Below are positions 21,845-48,922 of a stretch of DNA of 64,000 bases, piece after piece. The notes beneath the pieces are model-generated. The model did not search any database, was not told the DNA's origin, and was given only the letters and a program-made list of their open reading frames with translations. Source of the stretch: an uncultured Candidatus Saccharibacteria bacterium (lineage in GTDB: Bacteria; Patescibacteriota; Saccharimonadia; Saccharimonadales; JAGQNJ01); the NCBI GenBank assembly GCA_965231045.1, contig OZ246406.1, positions 642,208 through 706,207 on the forward strand, written 5' to 3'. Within the stretch, counting starts at the first letter, position 1. Each line of letters starts with the position of its first letter. A program made the translations under genes and the position numbers.

Positions 21845-21845
21845 T

Positions 21846-22646: not shown

Positions 22647-22689
22647 GAGTAAATAACTTCTACCTATTATAGAATACTAAGGAGATTCT

Positions 22690-28310: not shown

Positions 28311-28416
28311 TTTTCCACAATTTATCAGATGAGGTTTGCAACTGTGTATAAATTATGATCTGTTCGCGCTTTATTGTTATCACCACCAATAATGTGTCTT
28401 GCGGACTTGTGGAAAA
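28311..28416. promoter_or_regulatory. cluster of DnaA-box-like 9-mers upstream of dnaA (candidate oriC / dnaA autoregulatory region)
   Basis: TTTTCCACA (28311-28319), TGTGTATAA (28343-28351) and TGTGGAAAA (28408-28416) each differ by one mismatch from TTATCCACA/TGTGGATAA. Weaker TTATCACCA lies at 28377. The cluster sits in the rpmH-dnaA gap with AT-rich tracts. Confidence 0.5.
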
Positions 28417-28465
28417 GTCAGTATGCTCTAAGGTACAACGTGGAGAGTTTAATCAAGGGTGGAGC

Positions 28466-29836
28466 ATGAAGCGGGGATTTATGCACGATAATGTGTGGCA
28501 AGCAGTCTTAGGGGAAATCGAGCTTACTGTGTCGCGAGCCAGTTTTGTGACATGGTTTAAGAATACCCGTATGCTTCGTTTCAAAGACAACATTCTGACA
28601 ATCGGTGTACCAAACGTCTTTATAAAGCAACAATTGGAACGTAAATTTAACCAGCTAATCCAAGAAGTTTTGGCCAAAAATGGTGTTGAACCTGAGGCTA
28701 TTGAGTACAAGATTCACTCCGGTATCACTATTAATAAAAAGCCTGTGGATGAAGAAGCCGTTGTACTTAATAAGCCAGTTAAAAGTCCTCGGACCACCAG
28801 TTCACTTTCTCATAGCTACAGACAGGGACTTAACGAAAAGTATGTTTTTGAAAACTTTATCGTTGGTTCAGGTAATGAGCTGGCTTATGCAGCCTGCCAA
28901 GCAATCGCCCAAAACCCAGGAACCAAATATAACCCGCTTTTTGTTTACGGTGGTGTTGGCATTGGCAAAACTCATTTAGTTCAAGCTGTTGGTAATGCTG
29001 TATTGGCCAACAATCCTGATGCACATGTTGTATACGTATCTACCGAACAGTTTGTTCAGGAATTTCTTGATGCTATTCGCTACAAAAAGAATACTGATTT
29101 TGCAGGATATTATCGCTCGGCTGATGTTCTAATCATTGATGATATTCAGTTTATTGCCGGCAAAGAGAAGACCCAGGAAGAATTCTTCCACACTTTTAAT
29201 GCTTTGCACCAAGCCAACAAGCAGATCATTATAAGCAGCGATAAGCCACCGCGTGAAATACCAACTCTTGAAGAACGTTTAAGATCTAGGTTTGCCTGGG
29301 GTATGAGCATTGACATGCAGAACCCGGATTTTGAAACCCGTTGCGCAATTGTTCAAACTAAAGCTGGTGCGCGAGACATTGAGCTTTCACCAGATGTTGT
29401 TGATTACCTTGCGACGCAGGTGCGCACCAACATTCGTGAACTCGAGGGAGCACTAAACCAAATATTAGCGTTTTGTGAAATGCGCGGACTACAAGCTGAC
29501 TTAGCTTTAGCCAAGAGCGTACTGGGTTCAAGCAAGAGTCGACCAAAACATATAACTTCCAAGCAAATTATTGAACGAACGGCTAAGCATTTCCAGGTCT
29601 CACTAGATGATATTTTAGGTCCTAAGCGGGATAAGGACATCGTTGTTCCTCGTCAAGTTGCCATGTATATGCTCCGTAGCGAGCTACATTTAAGTTTCCC
29701 AAAAATTGCCCGAGAGCTGGGTCGTAAAGATCATACTACCGCTATTCACTCTGTTGAAAAGATCGAAAAAGAGTCCGCTATTAATACACAGCTTAAGAGT
29801 GCTATCTCTGAAATAAAGGAGCGACTCTATGCATAA
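28466..29836 (+). CDS. dnaA: chromosomal replication initiator protein DnaA
   Basis: Walker A GGVGIGKTHL, AAA+ box IIDDIQFIAGKE and a C-terminal DNA-binding helix (DHTTAIHSVEKI). The ORF track starts at 28355. ATG 28466 (preceded by GGTGGAG) or ATG 28481 fit DnaA N-termini better. Confidence 0.95.
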   Translation: MKRGFMHDNVWQAVLGEIELTVSRASFVTWFKNTRMLRFKDNILTIGVPNVFIKQQLERKFNQLIQEVLAKNGVEPEAIEYKIHSGITINKKPVDEEAVVLNKPVKSPRTTSSLSHSYRQGLNEKYVFENFIVGSGNELAYAACQAIAQNPGTKYNPLFVYGGVGIGKTHLVQAVGNAVLANNPDAHVVYVSTEQFVQEFLDAIRYKKNTDFAGYYRSADVLIIDDIQFIAGKEKTQEEFFHTFNALHQANKQIIISSDKPPREIPTLEERLRSRFAWGMSIDMQNPDFETRCAIVQTKAGARDIELSPDVVDYLATQVRTNIRELEGALNQILAFCEMRGLQADLALAKSVLGSSKSRPKHITSKQIIERTAKHFQVSLDDILGPKRDKDIVVPRQVAMYMLRSELHLSFPKIARELGRKDHTTAIHSVEKIEKESAINTQLKSAISEIKERLYA

Positions 29837-30076
29837 GTATGTGTCTAGCCTGTTTGTTACATGTGCAAAAACCTTTAGTTTGTACTCAGGACAAAAACCA
29901 CAACATTTTATGTGTGGAGTTACTCCTTCTTTGTACGCACCTTTTACTAAAGTTATCCGCAGCACATTCACAGCCAAGTTTGGTAATTTTAATCTGTTAA
30001 ATTCAACTTATACTCATTTCCCACAGGACTTATTAAAAGAACTACGAATTAATAAACTAATAGAAGGAATATAGTA

Positions 30077-31168
30077 ATGGATCTTCAAGTAACCCAAGAA
30101 AACCTATCCAAAGCCCTACAAACTGTTGCCCGAATCGCTTCAGGTAGATCAACCTTACCAATCTTAAACAACGTACTTTTACAAACGATAGATAACAGAT
30201 TAAGTATATCGGCGACAAACCTAGATATTGCGATCACCCAGTACATTGGTTCAAAGATTACTACCAAAGGGTCGATAACTGTACCAGCAAGACTAACTCA
30301 AGACTTTGTTTCAAATCTTCCTAGTGGGAATATTCATCTAGAGCAGAAAGATCACAAACTTCAGATAGTCTCTGGATCTTACGAATCAACAATTAACGGC
30401 TCGCTAGCCGACGAATTTCCTGTTATGCCAGCGATCACTAAAGGCCTAACCTGGACAGTGCCTGGCCAAACCCTAAAAAAGGCGCTAAGCCAGGTTGTTA
30501 TTGCTGCCTCGACTGACGAAGCCCGACCGATCCTAACAGGAGTTTATATTCACACCCATGGACGTAATTTGTTTGTAGTTGCGACGGATAGCTACAGACT
30601 GGCTGAGAAAAATATTGGCGAACAAAAAGAAGAATTATCATTGCTTGTTCCAGTAAGTGCCATGCAAGATGTGTTGAGAATAATCGGTGATTTTAATGAG
30701 GATGTAGTGGTTACTCACGATGACCAACAGGTCTTATTTAAGGTTGGCGACGTAGAGCTTGTGGCAAGACTACTCGAAGGATCTTACCCGGATTACCGAC
30801 GTTTAATACCTAACGATTTTGCGATGAGTGCAACCATCCCTCGATCAGAGTTCATAAATATTGCCAAGATTTCTAGTTTGTTTGCTCGTGAGAGTGCTGG
30901 GAGTATTACGATTGAGTTAGACGAGAAGAAGCAAACCATGAGTGTTAAGTCGGTTGCTTCACAACTTGGTGAAAACTCAGCTAGTCAAAAAGGAGAAGTG
31001 AGTGGTAGTGGTGAAATAACTCTTAACTCACGATACTTACTTGAGGGCTTGCAAGCGCTTGAAGGCGACCAGGTGACTATAGGATTTAATGGTAAGCTAG
31101 AACCAATCGTCTTAAAGGATCCTAAAGCCAAAGATTACCTACATATTGTGATGCCCCTAAAAAGCTAA
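30077..31168 (+). CDS. dnaN: DNA polymerase III beta sliding clamp
   Basis: 363 aa with LSKALQTVARIASGRSTLPILNNVLL... and ...EPIVLKD...IVMPLK. In dnaA-dnaN-recF synteny. Confidence 0.95.
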   Translation: MDLQVTQENLSKALQTVARIASGRSTLPILNNVLLQTIDNRLSISATNLDIAITQYIGSKITTKGSITVPARLTQDFVSNLPSGNIHLEQKDHKLQIVSGSYESTINGSLADEFPVMPAITKGLTWTVPGQTLKKALSQVVIAASTDEARPILTGVYIHTHGRNLFVVATDSYRLAEKNIGEQKEELSLLVPVSAMQDVLRIIGDFNEDVVVTHDDQQVLFKVGDVELVARLLEGSYPDYRRLIPNDFAMSATIPRSEFINIAKISSLFARESAGSITIELDEKKQTMSVKSVASQLGENSASQKGEVSGSGEITLNSRYLLEGLQALEGDQVTIGFNGKLEPIVLKDPKAKDYLHIVMPLKS

Positions 31169-31190
31169 ACAACCAGGTACAATTAAGGTA

Positions 31191-32243
31191 ATGATAACGA
31201 GCATACGAATCCAAAACTTTCGCTCATATAAAGATGCAGCGTTTGAGTTTGAGGACGGAGTTAACATTATAATAGGACCTAATGGTAGTGGTAAAACAAA
31301 CCTTCTAGAAGCAATCCTTGTTGCCTGTCGAGGCACATCATATAGATCAAAAGACATTGACTTACTGTCGCACAACGCCGACTGGGCCAGGCTGGAGGCT
31401 ACACTTCAGTCCAGCCAGCAGCGAGTCGTAAAAATAAAGCGACAAAATGACCGGGCAATAAAGAGTTTCGAAATTGACGATAAGCCATTGCACCGTTTAC
31501 TTCTAAGACATAGCTTACCGGTTGTTTTATTTGAACCCAATCAATTATTGTTGCTTACAACCTCGCCTGACCAGCGCCGGTTGTTTCTGGACGAAATATT
31601 AGAACAAACTGACATAACATTTTCCCAGGACAAAAAGGCCTATAACCGGGCACTTTCACAACGTAACAAGTTACTTAAACAAAATCCCAGTGATATTACC
31701 AAGCAAATATTCGTTTGGAATGTTCGCTTATCGGAACTAGGAACAAAAATAGCCCAAAAACGTGCGGAACTAATAAGTACTTTCAATAAGACCCTATCAA
31801 ACGCATATCAAAATATTGCTCATTCCAAGGATAAGCTAGAGTTGGGCTATGTTAGTAAGCACAATATAGATAATTATGGTTCGGAGCTATTAAAAAAGCT
31901 GGAACAAAACTTGGATAAAGAGCAGTTACAGGGCTTTACGCTTTATGGTCCTCACCGAGATGACATGAGCATTCTGCTTAATAAACAGCCAATCCAAACA
32001 ACTGCCTCAAGGGGTGAAGTTCGGACAATTCTACTTGGTCTAAAGATGCAGGAGGTGGTGCTAATAGGTGATTTTAGGGAAGACAAGCCTTTACTATTGC
32101 TGGACGATGTCTTTGGTGAACTTGATGGTATGCGTCGAAAGGCACTAACGGAGTTTCTGGACAGTTATCAGACTTTTATTACCACGACCGACGCTGATAT
32201 TGTGCTAAAAAACTTCAAGCACATTAATGCCATTGCACTATAA
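31191..32243 (+). CDS. recF: DNA replication and repair protein RecF
   Basis: 350 aa with FRSY...GPNGSGKTNLLEAI (Walker A), the signature SRGE and Walker B LLLLDDVFGELD. Confidence 0.9.
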   Translation: MITSIRIQNFRSYKDAAFEFEDGVNIIIGPNGSGKTNLLEAILVACRGTSYRSKDIDLLSHNADWARLEATLQSSQQRVVKIKRQNDRAIKSFEIDDKPLHRLLLRHSLPVVLFEPNQLLLLTTSPDQRRLFLDEILEQTDITFSQDKKAYNRALSQRNKLLKQNPSDITKQIFVWNVRLSELGTKIAQKRAELISTFNKTLSNAYQNIAHSKDKLELGYVSKHNIDNYGSELLKKLEQNLDKEQLQGFTLYGPHRDDMSILLNKQPIQTTASRGEVRTILLGLKMQEVVLIGDFREDKPLLLLDDVFGELDGMRRKALTEFLDSYQTFITTTDADIVLKNFKHINAIAL

Positions 32244-33782
32244 TTAACGAACAGTACTGGCTATGGTGTATGTTTTTCTGTCTATGCCAGCATTGTCAAC
32301 GGCTTTGTTTATAGCTACAACAGCTGCTGCTTTTGCTCCAGGATCAGTATCGAATGATCTTGTTGCTGGATTGTATCTAACGGCTCCAATATATGGGTTA
32401 AAGAATATTACGTTACCGTAAGTTGTTGCAGTAAGTGAAGGATCATTCTGCACAGAAAGTATTTTTTTATCTATGCTATCAGTATCGACTTTTTGGCCAT
32501 CAATAAATAACGCCATCTCCTGCTTTTTATTATCGGTTAGACTTAGGATAAAACCACCGTTTGTTTCTTGTAGCCGATTAAATTGGTAGTCCCCTAGACT
32601 GTATTCTATGTAGCCAACGGCTTTGTCTATATCTACATTGAATAAGGCTTGCTGGCCCTTGTTAAGAGCCAAGAACCCAGCTGGCGTGTCGTCGATGTAA
32701 TCAATGTTATATATTTGATAGAGTTTCTTCGGTGACTTGCCACTAATATCGTAAACGCTCAAAACATTCTTGGTGTCGAGAAGACACATTTTTTGTGATC
32801 CACAGAGTTGGGCGCCAGACAAATAACCATTAATTGAAAAATATTTAACCGACCCAGGCTTTCCATACACAACTTCTGTTTTAGCGCCTGATTGTTGAGA
32901 CTTAAGATTGCTACCGCTCAAATCACCGCTCGAGTAGGTCGTGAGTACAGTATCATTTGAAACGTCAAAATTTCCTTGGTTAGCAACAAGCCCCTTTGTT
33001 TTGGCCCCTCCGATTGCTAAGTCGGTTGGTCGTGAGGCTCTATCAGTGTAGTAATATATATGGCTAAAATCAGGTGCATAAACTACAAACCCATCTTTGT
33101 AGGCTCTTACTTTATAGAGGGCGTTATTGTCTAAATCACTTAAACCGGTGCCCTGGGACTTTGCAAGTGTTAGTGAGTCTGCTGCTGAATTTATCTTATA
33201 TACTGAATGGCCCGCAATGCCACTTACAATTGTGTTGTTTTTCATTAGTACAAAATTACCTTGAGAGGTATGGAAAGTGCCTTCAACATTGGTAAATAGA
33301 CCTTCATAGGTCGGTGTAGATGTATATGTAACCTGGGCGGCCGTGGATGGCACATGGTATTTTAGAGATGTATATTTATCGCCACAATCAAATGAGAATA
33401 ACTGGTTATTAATGCTATCCATGCAAAAAGCCGGACTCTTTCCAATAAATACTCTACTATGCTCAGGAGAAGTAGTAATATCAACGACTGTTTTACGGAA
33501 AAATCCTTTTAACGAAACGACGGCCACAAAACTTGTATTATTGTGGTAAACGACCATTTGGTATGAACCGCTTGGCAAACGTCTTTCGACCTGTGATTCA
33601 CTTGATTTGAAAGAGTCGACATTTTTACTGCCCTGTTTTGAAAGTTGGTAAATATACTCCCCTGTGCCGCTTTTATTATTAAGAACAATGCGCGACTGGT
33701 TGCTAAACCAAGAAAAAGCAAATAAACCAACTAGAAAGAGGAGAAATAGTACGAAGTATGCAATTGGTCGTCTGTTTTCCAT
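32244..33782 (-). CDS. bitopic membrane protein with large beta-rich extracytoplasmic domain; last gene of the T4SS-like operon
   Basis: 512 aa with a single N-terminal TM helix (IAYFVLFLLFLVGLFAF). It sits 62 nt downstream of the hydrolase gene. Its stop codon abuts the recF stop codon (TAATTA). Confidence 0.6.
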   Translation of the reverse strand: MENRRPIAYFVLFLLFLVGLFAFSWFSNQSRIVLNNKSGTGEYIYQLSKQGSKNVDSFKSSESQVERRLPSGSYQMVVYHNNTSFVAVVSLKGFFRKTVVDITTSPEHSRVFIGKSPAFCMDSINNQLFSFDCGDKYTSLKYHVPSTAAQVTYTSTPTYEGLFTNVEGTFHTSQGNFVLMKNNTIVSGIAGHSVYKINSAADSLTLAKSQGTGLSDLDNNALYKVRAYKDGFVVYAPDFSHIYYYTDRASRPTDLAIGGAKTKGLVANQGNFDVSNDTVLTTYSSGDLSGSNLKSQQSGAKTEVVYGKPGSVKYFSINGYLSGAQLCGSQKMCLLDTKNVLSVYDISGKSPKKLYQIYNIDYIDDTPAGFLALNKGQQALFNVDIDKAVGYIEYSLGDYQFNRLQETNGGFILSLTDNKKQEMALFIDGQKVDTDSIDKKILSVQNDPSLTATTYGNVIFFNPYIGAVRYNPATRSFDTDPGAKAAAVVAINKAVDNAGIDRKTYTIASTVR

Positions 33783-33844: not shown

Positions 33845-36800
33845 TTATTTAGTCTTTGTCCCATATCCAGTTACCCATGGTGCGTCAATTGGCTGCTGTG
33901 ATTGAGACAGGTTGCTGCCGTCATTACCGCCAATAATAGTGGCCATGTTACCATTAACAGCCACAACGATTGCAACGTGGTCAGGATAAGTCGGATTACC
34001 CTCCTCATTAATCTGAATATCACCGACTTTTGGCGTGTAACCGGCCTTTTCATGGAACTCTCCATTTTGTTCAAACCATGCTCTAAAGCTATTTGAAGCC
34101 GGGACCCTCCAGCCCCCACTTGTTCCTCCTGTCATTGGACTACCGGCTTCTTTCATGACCCAACTGGCGAAGTCAGCACACCAAGCTTCTACGTTGCCGT
34201 CGGAGTATTTTTTCTGACAATCAGATCCAGTAGGACACTTTCCGCCATTTGTGGCGAACTCTTGCTTGGCGACTTCGGCAATACGATTGCCAATATCTCC
34301 TGATAAAGCACTGCCACCACTGGCTCCACCACAACTAGATGAAGCGGCTGATGGGCTTCCGCTACTGGCTCCCGCACCCGAACCATACATCTGTAAGATA
34401 GCATTCGCGTTATCAACGCGCCCTTGCTGGGCGTCGCCTTTATGACGCTCATATTTGAGCTCAAAAGCTCTGGTGGCACCAACAATATCAGTCGAGGCCT
34501 TAAGTTCATCACCAGCGGCTTTCTCGCTTAGGGGGCTAGCTAATTCACTACCTTCAAGTTGTGACCAAACAAGCTCAAGTTGAAAGCTTAAATCACTGGG
34601 TAGCGTATCGGCACTGCCGCTACTCTGTTTGTACTTTTCAAGATTAGGTAAAATTTTGGTTCCTGGCGTGAACTGGACTATACCAAAGCCACCGGCAGCA
34701 GGGTGATCATCATGGCTGGAAGGTTGCCCGGCAACCGATGTTTCTCCACGTGAGTTAATAGTTCCGTATTCAACTAGGTCTGGTGTGAAGTGAGATTCTG
34801 ACTGCATGTTCCCCATAATTCCAGCGATCTGGAATGGTTGAAGCCCTTTTTGACCAAAGAAATTCCAGATTTTTTGTGCATTATCTGAGCCCGCAAGTTG
34901 CGTTGCTCCCGCTTTACAACATTCCGATCCATCCCCTGCGGATGTTTTACCGAGACCAGACTTGGCGGCCAGTATCTTGTTGGCAGATGCTTGAATTTGG
35001 GCTTTGAAGGCTGGGTCGGCATTCGCGTCTTGTTCAAGTTTATCGATTATTGGTTTAAGTTGATCTGCTCCAGTAAATAATGCAATGTCAGCACCTGAAC
35101 GAATTGCATTTACTACGTTATCAACTATGGATCCAGATAATCCACCGGCTTTTAAATCGTCTGTAATAATAATGCCGTTGTATTTGTAATCATTTCGAAG
35201 TAGATCATATGCAGGCTTACTAATTGATGCAGGTGCACCATTCGTTAGCCCGGGCACATTATAATTACTCATCATTACCCAACCGCCGCTCGTATTTGCT
35301 GCAAGCAGTTTTTGGTATGGAATCAAATCGGATGCTTTCAATTGATCTAGTGGTGGAGTACTTTCAGCTGCAAAGTCAGAGTTCTTGAGTGTGTTACCAA
35401 TGCCTGGAAAATGTTTGAAAGTGGGTGTAACGCCACCTGACTTTAAGCCTTCTGCAAATGCTCCGGCTTTTTCTACAACCCCATCGGGTGTAGCAGAAAA
35501 TGACCGCTGGATTTTGCCTATGGCTTCACTATTTGGATTGTCTAGGTCGACCACAGGAGCAAAGTTGACATTGATACCAGCGCTGGTTAGTTTGCTTGCT
35601 TCGTCAGAAGCAATTTTTTTAATCTCATCAACGCTCTTGGCTCCCATGGCTTGAGCGCTTGGCATGGCTGGACCAATGTTTGCACCCTTTATTGGATCAA
35701 TTTGGCCGCCCTCTTCATCGGTTGCAACGAAAGGAGGTGTTTTAAACAGGGGCTTTATGCCGTTAATTTTACTGCTATCTAAAAAGCTGGCTGGGTAATT
35801 TGGTGAAGACTCTCGGACATAAAATCCACCTAGATTTGCGGCGGCCATGGCTTGGGCTTGTTGTTGATCGTCAACTCGCACAAACAATAGTTGTGCTATC
35901 TGTTCGCGTAGGCTCAACTGTTGTTGGGTTGAGGTTGAGGTATCACCTTTTGTATCCGGAGAAGGTGCATTGCTGTCACTATTAGATTTGCTGTCAGTAG
36001 TTGGGGTTTGGGCATAAGCCGCTGGACTAAAAAAGTTGACTAGTGAATTGTGAAGCCTACCAGCCAAACTTTTTGGGTTTACGAATGCCAGAGCCTTCGT
36101 TAGATTTTCAAAGGTTGTTTTTTGTGTGCCGCCACCGGTGACTCCGTTGGCAACCGTGTCGGCAAATGCCTGAATGCCGGGACCAATTGGGTGAACTCCA
36201 AGACCGGCAGCCGGGTCAGGGTTAATATACTCTGGGTGCTGTTTTACAACGGATCCCCAATCAATAACCGTATAACCTTTGCTCGCATTTGTAGCTATGG
36301 TGTTATTCCATTGATCGGTTGGTATTGGTGAGCCGCTACGTTTTGAGTTATCAGCACCAATATTAACCCAATAAATTTTAGCGTTACTACTAGCTGCTTT
36401 TACTATATCAATTGCCTTTTGAATTCCGGCATCAGTCGGTCCACCGTTTGTGCCAAGTGCTATTACTACTGTTCCGGCATCTTTAATTGAATCGGTAGAT
36501 CGTTCCATAACACCAAGGCCGTTTAGTTGGTCGCCTCCTTCGCTCAAACTACGTGAGGCAACTCCATCAATTACTACCGGATTAAATCCCTTACCACTTA
36601 GAGTAGTATTGAGCTGGCTATTTGCACCTTGAGTAATCGAGTCACCAATCATATATAGCTTGCCTGTTCCGCTGCCGCCAGAACTTTTATTTCCGCCACC
36701 AGCACCACACTGTCTTTCGTAGAAAGTTTCGTTGGTTATAACCGAGTTAACATCATCCCAAGTTATATCTGCACGAACTACAAGTGGAGTACCGACGTTA

Positions 36801-36877
36801 ATTGCAATAAATAATCCTGCCATAGAGAAGGCATAAATACTTTTGAAATGATGCTGAACAAACTTAAACATTTTCAT
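33845..36877 (-). CDS. secreted four-module cell-wall hydrolase: SGNH esterase + GH3 N-acetylglucosaminidase-like + lysozyme-like + CHAP
   Basis: 1010 aa with a signal/anchor at aa 15-35. The SGNH module has block I LYMIGDSITQG, GTNG and GVHP (aa 73-245). The GH3 module has KHFPGIGNT and IIITDDLKAGG (aa 320-640). The lysozyme-like module has IAGIMGNMQSESHFTP...GGFGIVQFT (aa 665-830). The CHAP module has AWCADFASWV...YPDHVAIVVAV (aa 862-1005). Confidence 0.85.
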   Translation of the reverse strand: MKMFKFVQHHFKSIYAFSMAGLFIAINVGTPLVVRADITWDDVNSVITNETFYERQCGAGGGNKSSGGSGTGKLYMIGDSITQGANSQLNTTLSGKGFNPVVIDGVASRSLSEGGDQLNGLGVMERSTDSIKDAGTVVIALGTNGGPTDAGIQKAIDIVKAASSNAKIYWVNIGADNSKRSGSPIPTDQWNNTIATNASKGYTVIDWGSVVKQHPEYINPDPAAGLGVHPIGPGIQAFADTVANGVTGGGTQKTTFENLTKALAFVNPKSLAGRLHNSLVNFFSPAAYAQTPTTDSKSNSDSNAPSPDTKGDTSTSTQQQLSLREQIAQLLFVRVDDQQQAQAMAAANLGGFYVRESSPNYPASFLDSSKINGIKPLFKTPPFVATDEEGGQIDPIKGANIGPAMPSAQAMGAKSVDEIKKIASDEASKLTSAGINVNFAPVVDLDNPNSEAIGKIQRSFSATPDGVVEKAGAFAEGLKSGGVTPTFKHFPGIGNTLKNSDFAAESTPPLDQLKASDLIPYQKLLAANTSGGWVMMSNYNVPGLTNGAPASISKPAYDLLRNDYKYNGIIITDDLKAGGLSGSIVDNVVNAIRSGADIALFTGADQLKPIIDKLEQDANADPAFKAQIQASANKILAAKSGLGKTSAGDGSECCKAGATQLAGSDNAQKIWNFFGQKGLQPFQIAGIMGNMQSESHFTPDLVEYGTINSRGETSVAGQPSSHDDHPAAGGFGIVQFTPGTKILPNLEKYKQSSGSADTLPSDLSFQLELVWSQLEGSELASPLSEKAAGDELKASTDIVGATRAFELKYERHKGDAQQGRVDNANAILQMYGSGAGASSGSPSAASSSCGGASGGSALSGDIGNRIAEVAKQEFATNGGKCPTGSDCQKKYSDGNVEAWCADFASWVMKEAGSPMTGGTSGGWRVPASNSFRAWFEQNGEFHEKAGYTPKVGDIQINEEGNPTYPDHVAIVVAVNGNMATIIGGNDGSNLSQSQQPIDAPWVTGYGTKTK

Positions 36878-36879
36878 AG

Positions 36880-39800
36880 TTAGTTATCCGGGAGGGCATT
36901 AAAGGCGGCCACGAGCGCAGGCTGTGGGTTAAGGAATTGGAAGGGTGGCTGAGCGCAGGCTTGGTTGGTACATCCTTCTCGAGTGGTAGCTGGGGGTGGT
37001 TGAACGTCAAAGTGGAGATGTGAAGGTGTATTTTGAGCATCTTCATTTGTACCAACTTCGGCTAACTGATCACCGGCCTTCACTTTTTCACCACCACTAA
37101 ATTTAACGCTACCTGACTTAAGGTGTATGTACGAATAGATATTGTTATCATCACCTTTGATCACAATAATGCTACCAGTTCCGCCAGTTGGTTCATTGCG
37201 TCCAAATACTACTGTTCCGCCACGTGCGGCAACCACTGGTGTACCAGTGTCAGCGAAGATATCGGCAGCATTATAGTCATGATGGCAGTTTTCCTGACTC
37301 GTGTAACACCAAGCTGGATTGTGGGTAGTAATCTTTGACTTTGTTGTCTTTTGTGGGAACGTAAATCCATCAGGGCTCACACCAAGTGAACCGCTATTAC
37401 TTGAAGTCCCAGTGCTAGAGTTGTCGCCGGCTTTTGGAGCTTGAATGTCTGTTAGATGATTAAGAGCATTGTCATTACGGTGAGCAAGCCGCCACCGAAA
37501 CACCATGTCTCCAAACTTTGGATTATTAATGCCTAGGTTCAGTGGTGAACATAAACCAGCATCATTGGCTGCTGTTCCAGGGTAAACATGGCCTTTTTCA
37601 TCACGTTGGATCTTACCTTCTTTGAGTAAGTCGCCCATACTTTCTGTATAGCATGGTGAATACGTGCTCTCGATTGTATCTCTAACACCTGATTGGTTAA
37701 GTAAGACATCATTTTGTAGAGGGAAATATTGAGGATCATTTTCTATACGGTTCAATTCATCCTCACTCCAACACCATTGCACATTTTGATAGTTTGTATC
37801 AGTTACGGTTGCCGCCTGGGCAAAGGCTAACTGTTTCTTAAAAGGATTAATCGCATTAACTAGAGAGCCGTTCAGGATTGTTGAACCAATACGCGTTGAG
37901 CTGTCAGAAACCAGTTTTGGAATGTTCGATTTATTTGTTAGCTGCATCGACATGCTTACGCCCATATTGGTTAGTAGAGAGTCGGGATTGCTGATCGCAA
38001 AGTAACGTTCGAAGGTACCTTGACGACCCTTCTCGGATTGTAAATATGCAACACTGGCTTGATCGCTGGCAGTTGTTTCAGGTTGCGTTAAAGGTCTACC
38101 ATACATCATCTTTCGGCAATTTTCACTGGCCGCTAGATTACCACCCGCATCAGCGAGATTGGCTTCGTTTTGAGCACGTGCTGCCCCATTGTACTCGGCC
38201 CCCATCCGCGAAAGTACCAACATCCTTGAAATGGCTGTAAGTCCACCAACGATTGCGGCTTGCTTCACCCCGTTAACAACTGTCTCCTGCAGTATATTCT
38301 TAATGCCTTCTTTTGTAGTTACAGTTTCGGCTAATTTAGCAACAGCTTCAGAAGCCGCCTCCTTAATGGTTGTAGTTAGCGCAACTTCTCCAGGTTCGGC
38401 ACCACCACCGGACATGACAGCAATAATGGCTTGTATACCAAGCTCAATTCCAGCAACAGCAATTGCTCCCTTCCAGTCAGTGATAGCTTTGCAGGTCGGT
38501 TCTACAACAGAATTTATCTTAGTTGCTGGGCCTTGTGGGAGTAATAAGTTAACTAGGCTAAAAGTCCCAACTGCTGAAGCTTGAGGACTACTTACGGCAT
38601 CGGTTGAAACTGGCACGTTTTGATTTCTAGCTCTTTGTTCGGGAACGGAAGAAGTATAATCAGCAAGTTTTCTGTTTGTCGCCCCTACGGCTTCTGCGGT
38701 TGTATCGCCTTTCTTTTGCTGGTCACCAGCCGATGCAATGGCATAGAAATTTCTCATTGCAGAGATACTGTTTGCATCAACTGTACCCCCGGAGTGTTCA
38801 ACGGAGCCATCATAAATAATGCAGGCTGGTATTGCTACGGCAACAGCAGCTGAAGTTGCTTGGGCAGCAGTTATTCTTGCATCATCAACATTACTAATTA
38901 GAGCTGCTCTGGCTTCATCGGATAAATAATTAGTTGGATATTCACCTGTTAATCTCGCTCTTTCGGCATCACTTATAATCCCCGGGGGTGTGGCTAGGGG
39001 GTCAGCTTCAAGGAACTGTTTGGCACAATCAGGATTTTTTCGACACCTATCTTGAGCTGCCTTGGCTTGTTGCGTCGCCTCCTCAATAGTAGTAGATAAG
39101 GAAGTCTCAGAATTAGTCTTATATGTTCTATCCCACCACGTATTAAACTCAATTATATCGGCTTGAGCCTCACTGGCATTACGATATGTTGAGCCAAGCT
39201 TGTCCCACCAGTGCAGCTCTACACCAATATCCGATAGTATTTTTTTATTAACGCTACTTCTCACTAAGGTGTGTCTATCATGCAAAGCATCGTCAATGGT
39301 TGCCGATACCTTGCCGGCGAGTATTTTGTCCTCCTTTGGCGTGAGAGGATTAACTTTATTGACTACCTTTCTGGCAAGACTTGTATCTTCTGGCACGATT
39401 TCTGTTCCGTTTATGACTACTTTCTCTAATTTTTGCCGACCAAGTATGCCCTGGGGCTCACTATACTTAAAATCAATCTGGCCGGTAGCTTGCATATTTT
39501 TATAGGTTAGAGTTGGGCGCCAGGCATCTAATTTGCCCCATGTTGCACTTCGGAATGAAAGATACTTTTCTTTCATTGCAGCAAAAGTAGCATCATCAGC
39601 ACTATCAACAGCGATTTTCTCGGAAGTATCTTGGTTTATACTTTGGCTGAATGCCCGGGTCGTTCTAGCGAACTGCCATGCCTCAATATGTTCGGCTAGG
39701 TTAGGTATTTTAAGGGTTGCAAAAAAGGTTATCATTATTGCAAGTAAAATAAACAGGCCAGATCCACCAATACCAACACCAAAAAGGATCGCCTTATTTC

Positions 39801-40272: not shown

Positions 40273-40296
40273 TTGTATATTGCTCTCGCCTTTTTA

Positions 40297-42213
40297 TTAT
40301 ACCCCAGGTCTAAGCTGGTTGTTGAGGTCAATAGTACCTTTTTCGCCCTGTATTTCACCTGTTTGCTCAAGGGCTTTCATTTGCTCTGGATTGCTAGTAA
40401 TTAGCCCTGTTTCTGTTGGGCTAGCAGTAATTTGGATATGCACGTGGTTTTGCCCGGCAAAGAATAATCCTTGACCAACCGGGAATTGACTTAGGCGCTT
40501 GCGCTCCTCGCTAGTAAGTTTGAAAACATCGGCCAAAACATCAACTGCTGAAGTCGCCTGTTTAAGTAGTATTTGCATAGAGGCGTTGGCCACAATCGCT
40601 CGCCCAAGGCGACTACCCATAAAGTCCTCCACGTCTTGGCTGATTGTTGTTACGCCAAGGTTATACTTTCGGGCACGCTTAGCCAAGCTAAACAAGAAAT
40701 TAGCTGAATCTTCATACTTCATAAATTGCCATGCTTCGTCGACTATCAGAATGCGACGTTTCTTGTCGCTCTTGGTACGGTTCCAAATGTAGTTCAAAAC
40801 AATATACATAGCCACAGGACGTAGCTCGTCTTCTAGGTCGCGAACGTTAAAGACAATCATTTGGTTATCAATAGTAATGTTTGACTGTTGAGAGAAAATA
40901 CCGGCGAATGTTCCACTAGTATATTTACGCAGGCGTTGCGCAAGTTGCGGGCCGGTGTTGCCCATGTGTAGAAGCGTGTCATACAAGTCAGTTATTGTTG
41001 GTGGTTGTGAGTTATGAGTCAGTGGGTCATTTGTAATACCAGCTTTGGCATAAGTTTCGATTAAGGCTGCGTCTAAATCAGCTTCTTCAACTGGCGATAG
41101 TGCAGGCATAATTGCTGCACCACCCGATGCTGCCATTTGGGCTTGAGCTCCGCCCATCATCAAACGAAGCAGACCATGAAGAGTTATCAGGTTGCTTCTT
41201 AGAGCGTTGTCAGCTTCTTCGGTATCAATAACTTTTGGCAAATCAAACGGATTAATTCGGGTAGCTGAGCTTAATGACAGACGAATATAGGCACCGCCAA
41301 CTGCTTCACACATTCGCTGATATTCATTCTCAGGATCAAGAATAACTATCTCGGTACCAAGCATCATATTTCGCAGGGCTTCGAGCTTAACAGTGAAGCT
41401 TTTACCGGCACCAGACTTTGCAAAGACCACCGAGTTACTATTCTCTAGCGTAAAGCGATCAAAAATCACCAAACCAGAATTGTGCATGTTAATTCCGTAG
41501 AGAATACCGCTTTCCTGGCTGAGGTCTGCACTGGTGAATGGGAAGGTTGTACTTAGAGCGCCAGTGCTCATATTTCGTCGAATCTGCAGCTCATCAAAAC
41601 CTTGAGGTATCGTACTGTTTAGACCTTGTTCCTGTTGAGAAGTTGCAGGTTTTGAATACACCAATTGTTGGCCAAGCAGCGACTCAACTTTATGACTTAT
41701 GAACTCTAGCTCTTCAAGGCTGTCGGCATACAGTGTGAAGTAAAAACCCAAACGGAAGAACCGCTCTTCGCCAACCTGCAGTTTGTCTCGCATTTCCTCG
41801 GCATCGACAATCGCAGCTTGTTTACCTGGATCACGGACACGGCCTTTTTCGGCATCGATTTGAATACCAGCCTCAAGCTGACTAACCTTTTTACGTAAGT
41901 TCTCTAAAATGATCTGACTTTCAACTGGGTAGATGAATAATGACAAATCAATAACTTCATCAATGTTAATAATGCCACTAAGCCAACCAGTGAATAACTG
42001 TCGTGGATAACCAAAGACGTAAAAAGTTCTGGCAAAACGCGTACCGATTTGGAAGTAGCTAGTATTAAACTCCAATGAACTTGGAGCAATGAAGTCGCGC
42101 AGAGCGGTAATACCTTTTTGGAAAGCGACACTAACTTCTTGTTGCTCGCGAATGCGCTGGGCTTGGGCCAGTGCTACCGGATCAACTTGCTGTTTTTTCT
42201 TGCCGAATGCCAT
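40297..42213 (-). CDS. virB4: VirB4-family type IV secretion ATPase (Gram-positive PrgJ/TrsE-like)
   Basis: 638 aa. The N-terminal region DFIAPSSLEF...YPRQLFTGWLSGIINIDEVIDLSLFIYP is typical of Gram-positive VirB4. Walker A is AKSGAGKSFT and Walker B is RILIVDEAWQF. Confidence 0.9.
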   Translation of the reverse strand: MAFGKKKQQVDPVALAQAQRIREQQEVSVAFQKGITALRDFIAPSSLEFNTSYFQIGTRFARTFYVFGYPRQLFTGWLSGIINIDEVIDLSLFIYPVESQIILENLRKKVSQLEAGIQIDAEKGRVRDPGKQAAIVDAEEMRDKLQVGEERFFRLGFYFTLYADSLEELEFISHKVESLLGQQLVYSKPATSQQEQGLNSTIPQGFDELQIRRNMSTGALSTTFPFTSADLSQESGILYGINMHNSGLVIFDRFTLENSNSVVFAKSGAGKSFTVKLEALRNMMLGTEIVILDPENEYQRMCEAVGGAYIRLSLSSATRINPFDLPKVIDTEEADNALRSNLITLHGLLRLMMGGAQAQMAASGGAAIMPALSPVEEADLDAALIETYAKAGITNDPLTHNSQPPTITDLYDTLLHMGNTGPQLAQRLRKYTSGTFAGIFSQQSNITIDNQMIVFNVRDLEDELRPVAMYIVLNYIWNRTKSDKKRRILIVDEAWQFMKYEDSANFLFSLAKRARKYNLGVTTISQDVEDFMGSRLGRAIVANASMQILLKQATSAVDVLADVFKLTSEERKRLSQFPVGQGLFFAGQNHVHIQITASPTETGLITSNPEQMKALEQTGEIQGEKGTIDLNNQLRPGV

Positions 42214-43103
42214 TACTGTATGTCCTTATCTAAGTTTGGTTGTGGTGCATTGCCCTGGCCTCTTGTAACAACAGGTACGTTAAGATCATCGAAGTTCTGG
42301 AGAGGCTGCCGGGTTGCCGTCTCGGGGTTATAGCTAGAGTAATATAGTTCGATAAGTTCTTGGGTGGAAAGGGGGATGGCTTGTATACCACACTGTAGTA
42401 AACCTTCTAGTGTTGATTGAACACGGTTTCTAAGTTCGGTTTTGGCGGCCTCAAGATCAGCTTCATTAATCGTTACGTGTTGTTCTTTGTTTTGGAACAG
42501 CCCAATAAGTCCACTGAAGAAGTTTTTACTCTGGGTTATAGCTTTTTGAACATCGGCAATTGGGAAGTACGGAATAACAATATAGAACTTTTTGTCCATG
42601 ATGTTGGTTTGACCCACCATCTGAGCTATAAAGTTTATATAATCCTCCATAAGAAGGGCAAGCAGCATATTGTCTTGCTCAGTGCGTATTTTATCGAGCT
42701 TTTCGATATAGGGCCTCATGTCAACTCGCTCGGAACGCATGGTAACCTGAATCGGAAAGTACAGAGAGTTCAAGAATCGTTGGTAGCTGCTTTCTACGGC
42801 CTCGCGCTCCTGAGGACTCATAAGGTCAAAGTTTATTGCCTTAGCCATGATGACACTTCTGAACGAACCATCATTCATGATCACAATTCCATCACGAATT
42901 TCGGCTATGTGTAGGGAGTTTTGAGTGCTGTTAGGATTATTTTTGTTTGAACCTTTAGGGTCTACATGTTTTTTACGTGGATCACCTCCGACAATCGCTG
43001 AATTAGCCGCAAGCTGTGCAGATTGTGTTACGCCAGGCAAAGGCATGCCACCCTTTGCAGAGCGAACTTGTTGCTGCGGTTGATTTGGAGCCGAAGGATT
43101 CAT
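42213..43103 (-). CDS. T4SS-associated soluble protein of unknown function, translationally coupled to virB4
   Basis: 296 aa with no TM helix. A TAATG 1-nt overlap links it to the virB4 start. Its core IRDGIVIMNDGSFRSVIMAKAINFDLMSPQEREAVESSYQRFLNSLYFPIQV resembles, from memory, N-terminal segments of VirB4/TraC-type proteins. Confidence 0.6.
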   Translation of the reverse strand: MNPSAPNQPQQQVRSAKGGMPLPGVTQSAQLAANSAIVGGDPRKKHVDPKGSNKNNPNSTQNSLHIAEIRDGIVIMNDGSFRSVIMAKAINFDLMSPQEREAVESSYQRFLNSLYFPIQVTMRSERVDMRPYIEKLDKIRTEQDNMLLALLMEDYINFIAQMVGQTNIMDKKFYIVIPYFPIADVQKAITQSKNFFSGLIGLFQNKEQHVTINEADLEAAKTELRNRVQSTLEGLLQCGIQAIPLSTQELIELYYSSYNPETATRQPLQNFDDLNVPVVTRGQGNAPQPNLDKDIQ

Positions 43104-43158
43104 ATTATTTAGTGTCCCACCATTCTTGTTTTACAGAATGTTTTGATATTAACGTGAC

Positions 43159-44160
43159 TCATCTCAGAGATATAACAACCTCATCATCGGGCAAATCTTT
43201 ATCTTGCTTGCGGTTAGCTTCGCGCCCTAGTGTCGCCACGTTCAAATCATTGTTCTTAACAAGCTTAAGTATACCAGGATCAGTAGGTGGTGTCACCGCT
43301 GTTTGTGCTTGTGGTTGAGCTGTAGGCTGAGGGGCTGGTGTTGCTGTCGTTTTTGGCGCCTGAGGTTCAAGCCGCCGCATGTTTGCTTGAGCCAATTGAG
43401 CTTGACTTTCCTGTTTTTCAATTTCGGTCATGATTTCTTTTATGGTTGACGAAATCTTTGGTTCGGGAATTGGCTGATTGCCATTAGCTTGTTGTACAGC
43501 TTTTTGGTCGGCAGCTGCTCCCCTAACTTTATTTAACAATTCCTCTCGGTGTGCCGTCGAAGAAGCATCAATCATCTGTCCGACTTTTTGGGCAAGTGGG
43601 TTATTTTGATCATCAAGAATATCACTTGATGGATCTATTGCCGCCACGCTTGCATCTTGTGGGACGACGGATAGGTCTACGAGCCGATCCGATGTAGTGT
43701 TGCCAATGAGAGGTTGTTGGTAGGTAGCGATATCAACATTTTTGACAGCCCAGCCCCGGGTATCAAGTGTTGACGCCAAAGCTTTTAGTCGGCTATGGAC
43801 TTCTTGGTCACTAAAGCCCTTGGTTCTGACCCGCTCTATAGTCTTGGGCACTGTAATAGTGACCAGCTCTTTTGCACCTGCTTGGTCCCAGATTCGCCTG
43901 TGGGTTTTAAGGAAGAACTTTATCTTGGCCAATAGCCAAACCTCAGATGGCTGATCACGCCCAAACGGCGCCGCCAAAAGACCAAAAAAGATCATTGGTG
44001 GCAAAAACGGGAATGCCAAATACCAACGATATGTTCCGAGCTTAAAACCTGCGAACCCAAGAACTACAACAATAACGGCATAGATAAACTGACGTAGGCT
44101 TAAAGGCCCAAGCAGTTTATCTTCAGCCTCAATGTCTTGAAGAACTTTATACTGTGCCAC
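43159..44160 (-). CDS. PrgI/VirB3-like T4SS membrane protein with long Q/A/P-rich C-terminal extension
   Basis: 333 aa. The N-terminus MAQYKVLQDIEAEDKLLGPLSLRQFIYAVIVVVLGF plus a second TM helix matches, from memory, the PrgI-family pattern (xEDKxxGPLTLRQ). Its position directly upstream of VirB4 is as in Gram-positive T4SSs. Confidence 0.6.
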   Translation of the reverse strand: MAQYKVLQDIEAEDKLLGPLSLRQFIYAVIVVVLGFAGFKLGTYRWYLAFPFLPPMIFFGLLAAPFGRDQPSEVWLLAKIKFFLKTHRRIWDQAGAKELVTITVPKTIERVRTKGFSDQEVHSRLKALASTLDTRGWAVKNVDIATYQQPLIGNTTSDRLVDLSVVPQDASVAAIDPSSDILDDQNNPLAQKVGQMIDASSTAHREELLNKVRGAAADQKAVQQANGNQPIPEPKISSTIKEIMTEIEKQESQAQLAQANMRRLEPQAPKTTATPAPQPTAQPQAQTAVTPPTDPGILKLVKNNDLNVATLGREANRKQDKDLPDDEVVISLR

Positions 44161-44205
44161 AACAACACTAGTGTATCAGATTACAAACCGCTTATGAATG
44201 GTTAA

Positions 44206-45609: not shown

Positions 45610-45662
45610 ATTTATTATTATAGCACAGAATTTACTTATTGTCTATTTAAGTACACAGATTA

Positions 45663-48887: not shown

Positions 48888-48922
48888 TAACTAGAGTTTC
48901 TTAAAAAGTAAACACCCTGTTA

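Follow-up and report, generated by a model that had tools for sequence, protein, structure and literature searches.

The gene described here is of a kind already known, the cell wall hydrolases of type IV secretion systems (T4SS) such as PrgK and SEML1_0006. It lies in a 64,000-nucleotide stretch of contig OZ246406.1 from an uncultured Candidatus Saccharibacteria bacterium, and this whole stretch is called the window below. The gene encodes a protein of 1010 amino acid (aa) residues with four modules, which are, in order, an SGNH module, a GH3 module, a phage-tail-lysozyme module (Phage_lysozyme2) and a CHAP module. Anatomy and context together identify it with high confidence as a T4SS-associated wall-degrading enzyme. 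It consists of a PrgK-like core, in which a lysozyme of the phi29 gp13 type is followed by CHAP, and of two added accessory modules. A metallopeptidase is carried by the translationally coupled protein encoded upstream.

Conjugative elements of Gram-positive bacteria encode T4SS wall hydrolases with two domains, such as CwlT (ICEBs1), TraG (pIP501) and TcpG. Like the 1010-aa protein, they combine a glycan-cleaving module and a cysteine peptidase in one exported T4SS protein. They differ from it in their lysozyme or SLT families, in using NlpC/P60 or CHAP peptidases, in having two modules, and in being carried by mobile elements rather than by a core chromosomal locus. Some members of this class are needed for transfer (literature cited in PMC12102498).

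The best-studied analogue is PrgK, which belongs to the DELTA-class T4SS of pCF10 in Enterococcus faecalis and consists of LytM, MUR and CHAP domains (PMC11323569). Its MUR domain was identified as a muramidase by mass spectrometry, and phi29 gp13 is the only structural homologue of that domain in the PDB (PMC11323569). The LytM domain, which is degenerate, and the CHAP domain, which retains its Cys and His, were both inactive in vitro, and both down-regulated MUR (PMC11323569). PrgK and the 1010-aa protein are alike as T4SS-encoded multi-domain hydrolases, extracytoplasmic in the one case and predicted to be so in the other, in which a MUR domain of gp13 fold with a catalytic Glu is followed by CHAP. 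If the upstream protein and the hydrolase are read as one, M23, lysozyme and CHAP follow each other as LytM, MUR and CHAP do in PrgK. However, PrgK has no SGNH or GH3 module, carries its degenerate LytM domain in the same polypeptide, and serves DNA conjugation. The relationship holds at the Pfam and fold level only, because a tblastn search of plasmids with the lysozyme and CHAP half listed no PrgK-annotated feature or other conjugative hydrolase among its matches, and no place covering at least 80% of the query.

The gp13 protein of phage phi29 (3CSQ/3CSR) and the phage tail-associated lysins are comparable over one module. The whole N-domain of gp13 can be aligned, and gp13 also pairs this domain with an M23 wall peptidase. 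Unlike gp13, the hydrolase is not a virion protein; it has a putative Sec-type N-terminus, is chromosomal and linked to a T4SS, and has two extra modules.

In Saccharibacteria, a slot with peptidase and lysozyme homologues downstream of virB4 is already known and is essential for epibiotic growth (PMC12102498, PMC10633639). In Ca. Southlakia epibionticum ML1 it contains SEML1_0006, a 643 aa protein with GH73, PF18013 and cysteine peptidase domains, followed by SEML1_0007, which has a tail of DD-peptidase fold, and by SEML1_0008, which is VirB4 (PMC10633639). SEML1_0006 and SEML1_0007 are essential by transposon sequencing and lie within the essential T4SS cluster SEML1_0006-0019 (PMC10633639). 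The T4SS of this organism has no recognisable relaxase or coupling protein (PMC10633639, PMC12102498), in which it differs from the conjugative system served by PrgK.

The window shares this slot, in which dnaA-dnaN-recF, one or two exported proteins, the hydrolase, a protein of about 1100 aa with a wall peptidase, and VirB4 are found together. SEML1_0006 also comes from the same phylum and has the same core, in which a cysteine peptidase follows a PF18013 lysozyme. Compared by slot and domain content, it differs in having an N-terminal GH73 glucosaminidase (PF01832) and no SGNH and GH3 pair. PF01832 had no match in the 1010-aa protein in the Pfam search, and SGNH and GH3 fill its N-terminal part instead. 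SEML1_0007 has a Hedgehog/DD-peptidase (M15-like) tail, whereas the partner in the window has M23.

According to the initial annotation, one modest hydrolase of the VirB1/CwlT type is the norm for T4SS loci. This was an overstatement, given the two domains of TraG and CwlT and the three of PrgK (LytM, MUR and CHAP). The slot itself had also been noted before in Saccharibacteria (PMC12102498, PMC10633639). A protein combining SGNH, GH3, lysozyme and CHAP was not found described in the literature searched.

Anatomy of the 1010-aa protein

The frame of 1010 codons is uninterrupted. Four modules had been proposed for it in the initial annotation, and all four are present. GH3, lysozyme and CHAP exceed their Pfam gathering scores, which were used as the cut-off, and SGNH is recognised by a family profile, by matches of all 22 family segments, and by AlphaFold and Foldseek. 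The motifs quoted for the modules are found as well: Ser80, Asn144 and His229 in SGNH; KHFPGIGN at aa 488-495 and Asp573 of TDDL in GH3; Glu694 of GNMQSES together with GIVQFT in the lysozyme module; and Cys900 and His967 in CHAP. The linkers have the composition ascribed to them, being S/T/D/P-rich between SGNH and GH3 and G/S/A-rich before CHAP.

The Kyte-Doolittle maximum of the N-terminus over 19 residues is 1.83, at aa 16-34, and most aligned homologues have a similar hydrophobic N-terminus with a V-x-A-type motif. The hydrolase is thus predicted to be extracytoplasmic, through either a cleaved signal or a membrane anchor.

Cysteines recur at the module boundaries. They are Cys57 (36707-36709), the pair Cys653-Cys654 (34916-34921) and Cys849 (34331-34333). 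In 133 of 161 family proteins, the 35 aa upstream of the lysozyme module contain exactly two Cys; the N-terminal SGNH module is preceded by at least one in all 107 of 107, and the CHAP tail by one in 36 of 42. Possible roles include disulfides between linkers, redox control as in PrgK dimerisation, and processing sites.

The SGNH module matches Lipase_GDSL_2 (PF13472) at aa 77-230 with 27.7 bits, or 31.5 bits as an isolated segment, and both values are under the Pfam cutoff of 32.9; PF13472 is nevertheless matched by all 22 family SGNH segments. A profile of these 22 sequences, compared with solved structures, best matches OatA-C (6WN9/6VJP, E-value 1.5e-15; also 5UG1/5UFY), with PatB next. 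The AlphaFold model has a core with a predicted local distance difference test (pLDDT) score of about 98. Its Foldseek neighbours are PatB, sialate O-acetylesterase and acetylxylan esterase (Axe2), and Ape1 is a more distant match (E 3e-4). Two of these structures, 6VJP and 5UFY, are extracytoplasmic domains of the peptidoglycan O-acetyltransferase OatA, and OatA-C, PatB and Ape1 all act on the 6-O-acetyl group of N-acetylmuramic acid (MurNAc) (PMC9487903).

With these enzymes the module shares the SGNH fold, the GDS and GTN motifs and the Block V His. Gly78-Asp79-Ser80 (Block I), Gly142-Thr143-Asn144 (Block III) and His229 (Block V) are invariant in the 22-sequence alignment, and the GDS[ILV] and LGTN motifs occur in nearly all of the first 73 homologues. 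Block V reads D221-P-A-A-G-L-G-V-H229 rather than the usual D-x-x-H. D-G-I-H is kept in some homologues, and in the profile alignment the Asp of the OatA D-G-I-H pairs with Asp221 across a 5-residue insertion, which shifts it relative to OatA.

By sequence and fold, then, the module appears to group with enzymes that handle sugar O-acetyl groups, closest to those acting on MurNAc O-6, and not with lipases. The de-O-acetylation suggested in the initial annotation is better grounded as a result, since the nearest solved relatives, OatA-C and PatB, act on the MurNAc 6-O-acetyl group. OatA-C and PatB are transferases that receive acetyl from an AT3 or MBOAT partner, whereas no such acetyl-donor domain is fused to the 1010-aa protein. 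From this sole ground we infer an esterase, which would remove the acetyl group. Ape1, an O-acetyl-peptidoglycan esterase, is a true esterase yet a more distant match than OatA-C and PatB. Muramidases are frequently inhibited by peptidoglycan that is O-acetylated (PMC11323569), which provides a rationale for pairing SGNH with a lysozyme. In the module census, 124 family proteins bear SGNH, and 113 of them have the lysozyme module as well.

The GH3 module matches Glyco_hydro_3 (PF00933) at aa 323-636 (E 1e-46, 2-314 of 316 profile positions). Among solved structures it is closest to 4YYF (E 7e-47) and Mycobacterium tuberculosis LpqI (6GFV, E 2.5e-45), while the NCBIfam NagZ equivalog is not reached (108 bits against a cutoff of 207). 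LpqI is an extracytoplasmic exo-beta-N-acetylglucosaminidase that splits N-acetylglucosamine (GlcNAc)-MurNAc, and GH3/NagZ enzymes remove terminal GlcNAc (PMC6572805). The initial annotation had proposed that the protein could cleave both types of glycosidic bond; for bonds within the strands, an exo-acting enzyme of this kind does not fit that proposal.

Thr572-Asp573-Asp574-Leu575 aligns with the SDDL/TDDL of LpqI and 4YYF, and the first Asp of the [ST]-D-D-L motif, Asp573, is taken here to be the catalytic nucleophile. Asp573, Asp387, Glu389, Arg458, Lys488 and His489 are invariant in an alignment of 18 GH3 sequences; the nucleophile, whose loss the initial annotation had named as a reason to doubt the module, is thus retained.

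All known NagZ enzymes have an Asp-His acid/base dyad in the motif K-H-F-P-G-H-G-x4-D-[ST]-H (PMC6572805). This dyad was not found in the GH3 module, which reads KHFPGIGNTLK-N499-S500-D501 at this place. The residue that binds the lactyl group of MurNAc in LpqI is Arg130 (PMC6572805), which corresponds to Arg67 in Pseudomonas aeruginosa NagZ. It is Gln392 in the hydrolase and Gln, Lys, Thr or Ala in the homologues. By a count through the LpqI alignment (chain index 85, offset 45), Arg130 was placed at the Arg of DEEGGR.

The resemblance to LpqI (6GFV) and single-domain NagZ enzymes therefore has two sides. The GH3 N-domain, the nucleophile Asp and K-H-F-P-G are shared, LpqI is extracytoplasmic as the module is predicted to be, and the closest named homologues from outside the family are actinobacterial. 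The dyad, the Arg130 position and the fusion into a multi-enzyme protein differ, and the match covers the GH3 N-domain only. The earlier label of a NagZ-like module holds for the nucleophile and for LpqI as the nearest relative, but not for the Asp-His dyad and the lactyl Arg, which are replaced.

Decay of the active site was considered as an explanation and rejected, since the variant is both conserved and widespread. Among 95 fused GH3 modules, whose sequences are mostly at most 50% identical, N-[ST]-D is the commonest motif with 48 cases, followed by D-[ST]-H with 29 and by about 18 with another or an unrecognisable motif. The same KHFPGIGN...N[ST]DF motif also occurs in two standalone GH3 proteins. 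One, in Streptomyces sp. WELS2 (L035:121-1095), has 324 aa and TDS instead of TDD as its nucleophile motif; its gene is close to a ParB-like one, on a short contig. The other, in a Chloroflexota metagenome-assembled genome (MAG; L027:403-1932), has a lipoprotein-type signal. On these alignments we read the module as a probable member of an uncharacterised subfamily with a carboxylate, Asp501, in place of the NagZ His. Literature searches on NagZ/GH3 in Saccharibacteria and on glmS in Saccharibacteria found nothing relevant.

The lysozyme module matches Phage_lysozyme2 (PF18013) over all 140 profile positions (aa 665-831, E 2e-28, 100 bits against 28.2). A profile of the lysozyme and CHAP half matches residues 17-162 of gp13, in its N-domain, with an E-value of 4e-15, and a Foldseek comparison of the model of this half with gp13 gives 2e-4. 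Glu694 in GNMQSES aligns with gp13 Glu45 by residue count, and G-x-V-Q-W/F-T-P is also shared. Glu694 is invariant in the lysozyme and CHAP alignment and nearly invariant among 18 whole-family homologues. Its equivalent in PrgK, Glu573, has been described as catalytically important (PMC11323569). The module is predicted by analogy to be a muramidase of the gp13/PrgK-MUR type. In a tblastn search it matched 356 phage records, and the matches listed are tail lysins of Staphylococcus and Bacillus phages.

The CHAP module matches PF05257 at aa 895-985 (E 2e-10, 41.5 bits against 26), and 12 CHAP-tailed relatives all keep Cys900, His967 and Asn985. A plain sequence search of the PDB gave no true match for it, and the family profile gave none either; weak matches to L,D-transpeptidases in the sequence search were dismissed as spurious. 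The fold was therefore checked through a structure model, with a domain pLDDT of about 80, which is of moderate confidence. Foldseek matches this model to the CHAP domain of Ly7917 (2e-4), the CHAP of the phi812 hub, PlyC, PlyGRCS and Gsp amidase. With moderate confidence, the model suggests a papain-like CHAP fold.

A variable family in a T4SS slot

The family was searched for among 1.84 billion representative proteins at an E-value of at most 1e-30, which gave 436 matches and an end-to-end match to just one cluster at 50% identity. The modules were counted in 201 sequences. SGNH, lysozyme and CHAP occur together in 25 of them, SGNH, lysozyme and M23 in 14, and SGNH, GH3, lysozyme and M23 in 13. 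The content of the 1010-aa protein is found in five, namely itself and P0001-P0004, and another five have SGNH, GH3 and lysozyme with an M15-like tail. Other tails, C39-like ones among them, occur too, as do permuted orders of the modules. Since SGNH follows GH3 rather than preceding it in some members (P0035, P0043 at L006:10001-13126, P0053 and P0055), the order of the modules is permuted, not their content alone.

The four-module order recurs in independent assemblies. P0001 (Logan) has it at 99% identity, and P0002 (ENA), P0003 (JGI) and P0004 (NCBI and Logan) have it at 47-51% identity. The module junctions are kept in the alignment, including the Cys-Cys pair. The four-module form, whose distribution the initial annotation had wished to see, was counted in this census, but its spread over species cannot be read from a scan of genome collections with the family alignment, because the conserved KHFPG drew mostly ordinary NagZ genes, which swamped the 80 loci listed. 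Homologues of the 1010-aa protein are named Saccharimonadales or Saccharibacteria. Together with the synteny with Ca. Southlakia epibionticum, this agrees with the earlier guess that the organism is of a host-attached type.

Divergence was measured against the two closest syntenic genomes, L001 and L003. VirB4 is 91% identical to its counterpart in L001 and 93% in L003, DnaA 88% and 88.5%, and DnaN 82% in both. The hydrolase is only 47% and 43% identical, the upstream partner 46% and 50%, and the downstream 512-aa protein 50% and 27%. Within the hydrolase, the SGNH module is closer to L003 (63%, against 31% in L001), whereas GH3 is closer to L001 (59% against 47%), as is the lysozyme module (47% against 32%). 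These mutually incongruent identities point to a mosaic hydrolase.

The tails of both proteins vary as well. The tail of the hydrolase alternates among CHAP, M23, M15-like and C39-like peptidases, and GH3 may be present or absent. The partner has an M23 tail (HH-x5-D ... HLH) in the window and in L003 (L003:6711-9995), and M15/LAS-type motifs in L001 (L001:6801-10004), L004 (L004:6897-10004) and L006 (L006:6077-9436). These motifs were recognised as H-x-x-G-x-A-x-D with a downstream His motif, and Pfam gave nothing in L001. The M23 domain of the partner matches the M23-tail profile of the hydrolase family with an E-value of 4e-31. By these comparisons, the hydrolase family is combinatorial and hypervariable, and it belongs to the most variable part of an otherwise conserved machine.

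The hydrolase belongs to a chromosomal, origin-proximal T4SS of the monoderm type beside dnaA-dnaN-recF (Table 1). Its slot, after VirB4 and the partner, is kept in each of the five related loci examined, irrespective of how the hydrolase is built, and the gene junctions in these loci are 4-nucleotide overlaps or 5-nucleotide gaps. The adjacent M23 domain and the T4SS setting reported in the initial annotation are both confirmed, the VirB4-like ATPase being above the NF045971 cutoff. The first approximately 150 residues of the partner are of low complexity, with a hydrophobic segment after them, an arrangement that resembles PrgK; this topology, with its large exported region, is a prediction. 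The gene of 296 aa is 75-78% identical to TraC-like genes of L001 and L003. On the other side, the 512-aa protein is syntenic in L001, L003 and L004 and changes faster still, with no blastp match to its L004 counterpart, and could be a further component of the interface or of its control.

Table 1. Positions in the window of the hydrolase, its modules and the neighbouring genes
Feature	Position	Strand	Remarks
Whole hydrolase open reading frame, 1010 aa and stop	33845..36877	(-)	Predicted exported four-module peptidoglycan-active protein; positional orthologue of SEML1_0006
N-terminal export signal or membrane anchor (predicted), aa 1-36	36770..36877	(-)	Basic N-region, hydrophobic aa 16-34, then VRA|D
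SGNH module, aa 73-245	36143..36661	(-)	OatA-C/PatB-like carbohydrate O-acetyl esterase/transferase type; Ser80 (GDS), Asn144 (GTN), His229
Linker 1, aa 246-322	35912..36142	(-)	First part moderately conserved; remainder of low complexity, S/T/D/P-rich
GH3 N-terminal-domain module, aa 323-636	34970..35911	(-)	LpqI/NagZ-like; presumed nucleophile Asp573
GH3 acid/base motif KHFPGIGNTLKNSD, aa 488-501	35375..35416	(-)	N499-S500-D501, where NagZ has its D-[ST]-H dyad
Lysozyme-like module, aa 665-831	34385..34885	(-)	Phage_lysozyme2 / phi29 gp13-N / PrgK-MUR type; predicted catalytic Glu694; Cys653-Cys654 just upstream
CHAP cysteine peptidase/amidase module, aa 862-1010	33848..34294	(-)	Cys900, His967, Asn985
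Partner gene, 1130 aa	36880..40272	(-)	Two bases upstream; low-complexity N-terminus, hydrophobic at about aa 160-185, predicted large exported region, C-terminal M23; positional orthologue of SEML1_0007
M23 (LytM-type) peptidase domain of partner, aa 1001-1091	37000..37272	(-)	HH-x5-D, H-L-H; Pfam E 2e-17
VirB4-like T4SS ATPase, CD1110 family	40297..42213	(-)	NCBIfam NF045971, 365 bits against cutoff 325; Pfam P-loop_TraG
Remaining T4SS cluster	42213..49942	(-)	Order: 296-aa gene in TraC-like slot, PrgI-family protein, 467-aa protein, VirB6/TrbL-like 1074-aa protein, 339-aa protein
Downstream 512-aa protein	32244..33782	(-)	N-terminal hydrophobic segment, no recognised domain
dnaA, small open reading frame, dnaN, recF	28355..32243	(+)	Replication-origin genes, which flank the T4SS cluster in each of the related loci examined

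Several other features of the window were noted. The small frame among the replication genes has 81 aa (29829-30074, (+)), overlaps the end of dnaA and precedes dnaN, and a frame of 80-84 aa lies at the same place in L001, L003 and L006. The T4SS block (34000-48000) has a G+C content of 0.44-0.465, compared with about 0.40-0.41 in its flanks, which may reflect the Gly/Ala/Ser-rich linkers or a different history. A scan of the cluster for promoters and terminators gave counts equal to the shuffled expectation. An Rfam scan of the window found tRNAs only, located elsewhere in it, and further copies of the hydrolase modules were not found within the 64 kb except for the M23 of the partner.

A 581-aa protein (14281-16026, (+)) matches FG-GAP-like repeats and, weakly and over the whole protein, PliI (E 9e-7, with no single stretch passing). 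PliI is a periplasmic inhibitor of I-type lysozyme. The match is probably an artefact of a beta-propeller; a real lysozyme inhibitor would bear on self-protection. Other envelope genes lie within 5723-7798 (+), 10590-11825 (-) and 18066-25041. They encode a 691-aa subtilase (S8), a UDP-glucose/GDP-mannose dehydrogenase, a large GT4/GT1 glycosyltransferase, a Wzt-type ABC ATPase and a Wzy_C-type ligase/polymerase, and together they suggest a surface-polysaccharide locus.

Proposed role and competing explanations

Saccharibacteria are epibionts of Actinobacteria, and the peptide chemistry of actinobacterial walls is variable. With a probability of roughly 0.6, the 1010-aa protein is the peptidoglycan-degrading component of the Saccharibacterial T4SS and opens a passage through a thick wall by the following mechanism, in which each activity is read from anatomy.

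The N-terminal signal or anchor would place all four modules outside the membrane. There, SGNH would strip the MurNAc 6-O-acetyl groups that would otherwise block the lysozyme-type module, and the latter, through Glu694, would cut MurNAc-beta-1,4-GlcNAc bonds. CHAP (Cys900/His967/Asn985) and the M23 of the partner would cut stem peptides or cross-bridges. The GH3 module, of the LpqI lineage with Asp501 for the NagZ His, would act as an exo-beta-N-acetylglucosaminidase and trim terminal GlcNAc from strand ends or released muropeptides. Their joint action would open the thick wall where epibiont and host are in contact, so that the T4SS or a pilus could reach the host. Through exchange of its peptidase tail, the enzyme would be suited to host walls that differ in their peptide chemistry.

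Whether the host actinobacterial wall is the main substrate, with the epibiont wall possibly cut too, stands at about even odds. The peptide-cleaving modules change cassette by cassette between near-identical machines and the wall peptides of Actinobacteria are variable, which together fit a variable external substrate better than the epibiont's own wall. The likeness of the lysozyme module to phage tail lysins, which attack their target cell from outside, plausibly points the same way. So, plausibly, do the nearest relatives of GH3 and CHAP outside the family, which appear to be actinobacterial. In the genome-collection scan with the family alignment, one Saccharibacteria MAG comes first among the matches listed for GH3; the next nearest all belong to Actinomycetota (Saccharothrix, Actinosynnema, Umezawaea and Mycobacterium), with 35-39% identity, compared with 28-33% for other phyla. 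Among named references, the best match is in Actinomycetota for 92 of the 93 fused GH3 modules. In the plasmid search with the C-terminal half, the tail matched actinobacterial CHAP proteins.

Several points weigh against this interpretation. The presumed target of PrgK is the wall of the donor itself (PMC11323569). Its silent, inhibitory LytM and CHAP domains mean that some of the hydrolase modules may be regulatory, and they illustrate that the presence of a domain does not prove activity. Fast evolution is common among surface-exposed proteins and is no proof of a host target. The closest relatives of SGNH are O-acetyltransferases, not esterases. Without the His acid/base and the lactyl Arg of characterised NagZ, the substrate of GH3 may not be peptidoglycan, or the module may only bind; GlcNAc-MurNAc in particular may not be its substrate because Gln392 replaces the lactyl-binding Arg. 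Finally, the actinobacterial affinity of GH3 rests on a reference set picked by similarity to the 1010-aa protein, and that of CHAP on a plasmid collection rich in Streptomyces.

A more far-reaching form of the host-wall interpretation is tentative and rather unlikely as a whole. The hydrolase and the partner would here make up a host-wall disassembly line, built from modules of host-phylum enzymes (LpqI-type GH3 and CHAP of Actinomycetota) and of phage tail lysins and exchanged among closely related epibionts to suit the O-acetylation and peptide chemotype of the host wall, so that the combination would be one determinant of host range. The exo-acting GH3 would represent an uncharacterised extracytoplasmic subfamily, might be a simple hydrolase and not a phosphorylase, and could feed host amino sugars to an epibiont without GlmS, GlmM and GlmU.

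Among the alternatives, the one that survives best, unlikely but serious, is that the protein only remodels the epibiont's own wall. Like VirB1, PrgK or CwlT, it would open the epibiont peptidoglycan for the T4SS channel or pilus; the extra modules would tune or restrain it, and the host wall would be no substrate. The gene does lie inside the T4SS operon beside VirB4, and it has the PrgK-like pair of MUR and CHAP; in PrgK, the domains that flank MUR restrain it and so protect the producer. The long hydrophobic N-terminus could anchor the enzyme at the producer's surface. Saccharibacteria also have genes for wall synthesis, and MurA, MurG and FtsW are essential in S. epibionticum (PMC10633639). 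However, the tail swaps and the 43-47% identity of the hydrolase would then require the wall chemistry of the epibiont to vary between genomes whose VirB4 is 91-93% identical. A small local opening needs no exo-GlcNAcase or de-O-acetylase, and the closest annotated relatives of the lysozyme module are phage tail lysins, which act from outside.

It is quite unlikely that only one or two modules are catalytic. GH3, CHAP or both would then be binding or autoinhibitory modules, as in PrgK, and four activities would be an overstatement. The absent NagZ dyad (Asn499/Asp501) and the Gln in place of the lactyl Arg fit this explanation, as do the degenerate LytM of PrgK and its CHAP, which has Cys and His yet is inactive (PMC11323569). 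In the GH3 module, though, the nucleophile and other residues of the -1 subsite are invariant in the 18-sequence alignment, and an Asp in place of the His is chemically capable of acid/base catalysis. N-[ST]-D is, as described above, the commonest form among fused modules, and a purely accessory role is unlikely for the standalone proteins of Streptomyces and Chloroflexota that share it. The three CHAP residues are likewise invariant in the 12 relatives.

There is a small chance that the system serves mainly to harvest the wall. The four modules and the M23 of the partner would depolymerise host peptidoglycan to amino sugars and peptides for an auxotrophic epibiont, and the breach for the T4SS would be secondary. 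GH3 would act from the ends on fragments, a step that is not needed for making a hole. LpqI acts on GlcNAc-MurNAc after removal of the peptide and is needed for growth on soluble peptidoglycan (PMC6572805). In the table for S. epibionticum, MurA and MurG are essential, while the KEGG Orthology (KO) numbers of glmS, glmM and glmU are not among the entries listed (PMC10633639), which suggests dependence on external amino-sugar precursors. The KO numbers of nagA and nagK are likewise not among these entries, however (PMC10633639), so no canonical path that would lead from free GlcNAc to UDP-GlcNAc is evident. Many members without GH3, including the 25 forms with SGNH, lysozyme and CHAP, hold the same T4SS slot; with Gln392, GlcNAc-MurNAc may not be the substrate; and the strict linkage to the T4SS favours a role associated with the machine.

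It is very unlikely that the protein is a general autolysin for growth, budding or separation of daughter cells and lies beside the T4SS by accident. Multi-module autolysins with SGNH, glycosidase and peptidase domains are known in Gram-positive bacteria, and the essentiality of SEML1_0006 would also fit a role in division. Against this, VirB4 and the partner are adjacent in every locus examined, at identities down to 28% and with frames that overlap or nearly touch, and hypervariability with swapping of tails is unusual for a core division enzyme. There is practically no chance that the gene is an assembly chimera or a pseudogene, a check called for in the initial annotation, because the frame is intact and the same architecture, with conserved junctions, recurs in four independent assemblies from different sources.

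Significance for Saccharibacteria and their hosts

Attachment to host bacteria is the way of life of Saccharibacteria and other Patescibacteria, and the hydrolase bears on two questions that this raises, namely how a thick Gram-positive wall is breached and what makes the host range so narrow. The Saccharibacterial T4SS is essential (PMC10633639, PMC12102498). Three features of the hydrolase stand out: the OatA-like SGNH module, the Asn...Asp variant of GH3, and the swapping of cassettes. The second of these points to an uncharacterised GH3 variant with a changed acid/base residue.

If the protein remodels only the wall of the epibiont, it is an elaborate but ordinary hydrolase of the PrgK type. 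If instead it acts on the host wall, it may help decide which host cells the epibiont can attack. The modules map to defined bonds of peptidoglycan, namely O-acetyl, MurNAc-GlcNAc, terminal GlcNAc and peptide bonds, and the family would be a natural series of multi-enzyme wall degraders aimed at Actinobacteria, mycobacterial relatives included. Should the cassette content track the chemistry of the host wall, host range would become predictable from sequence.

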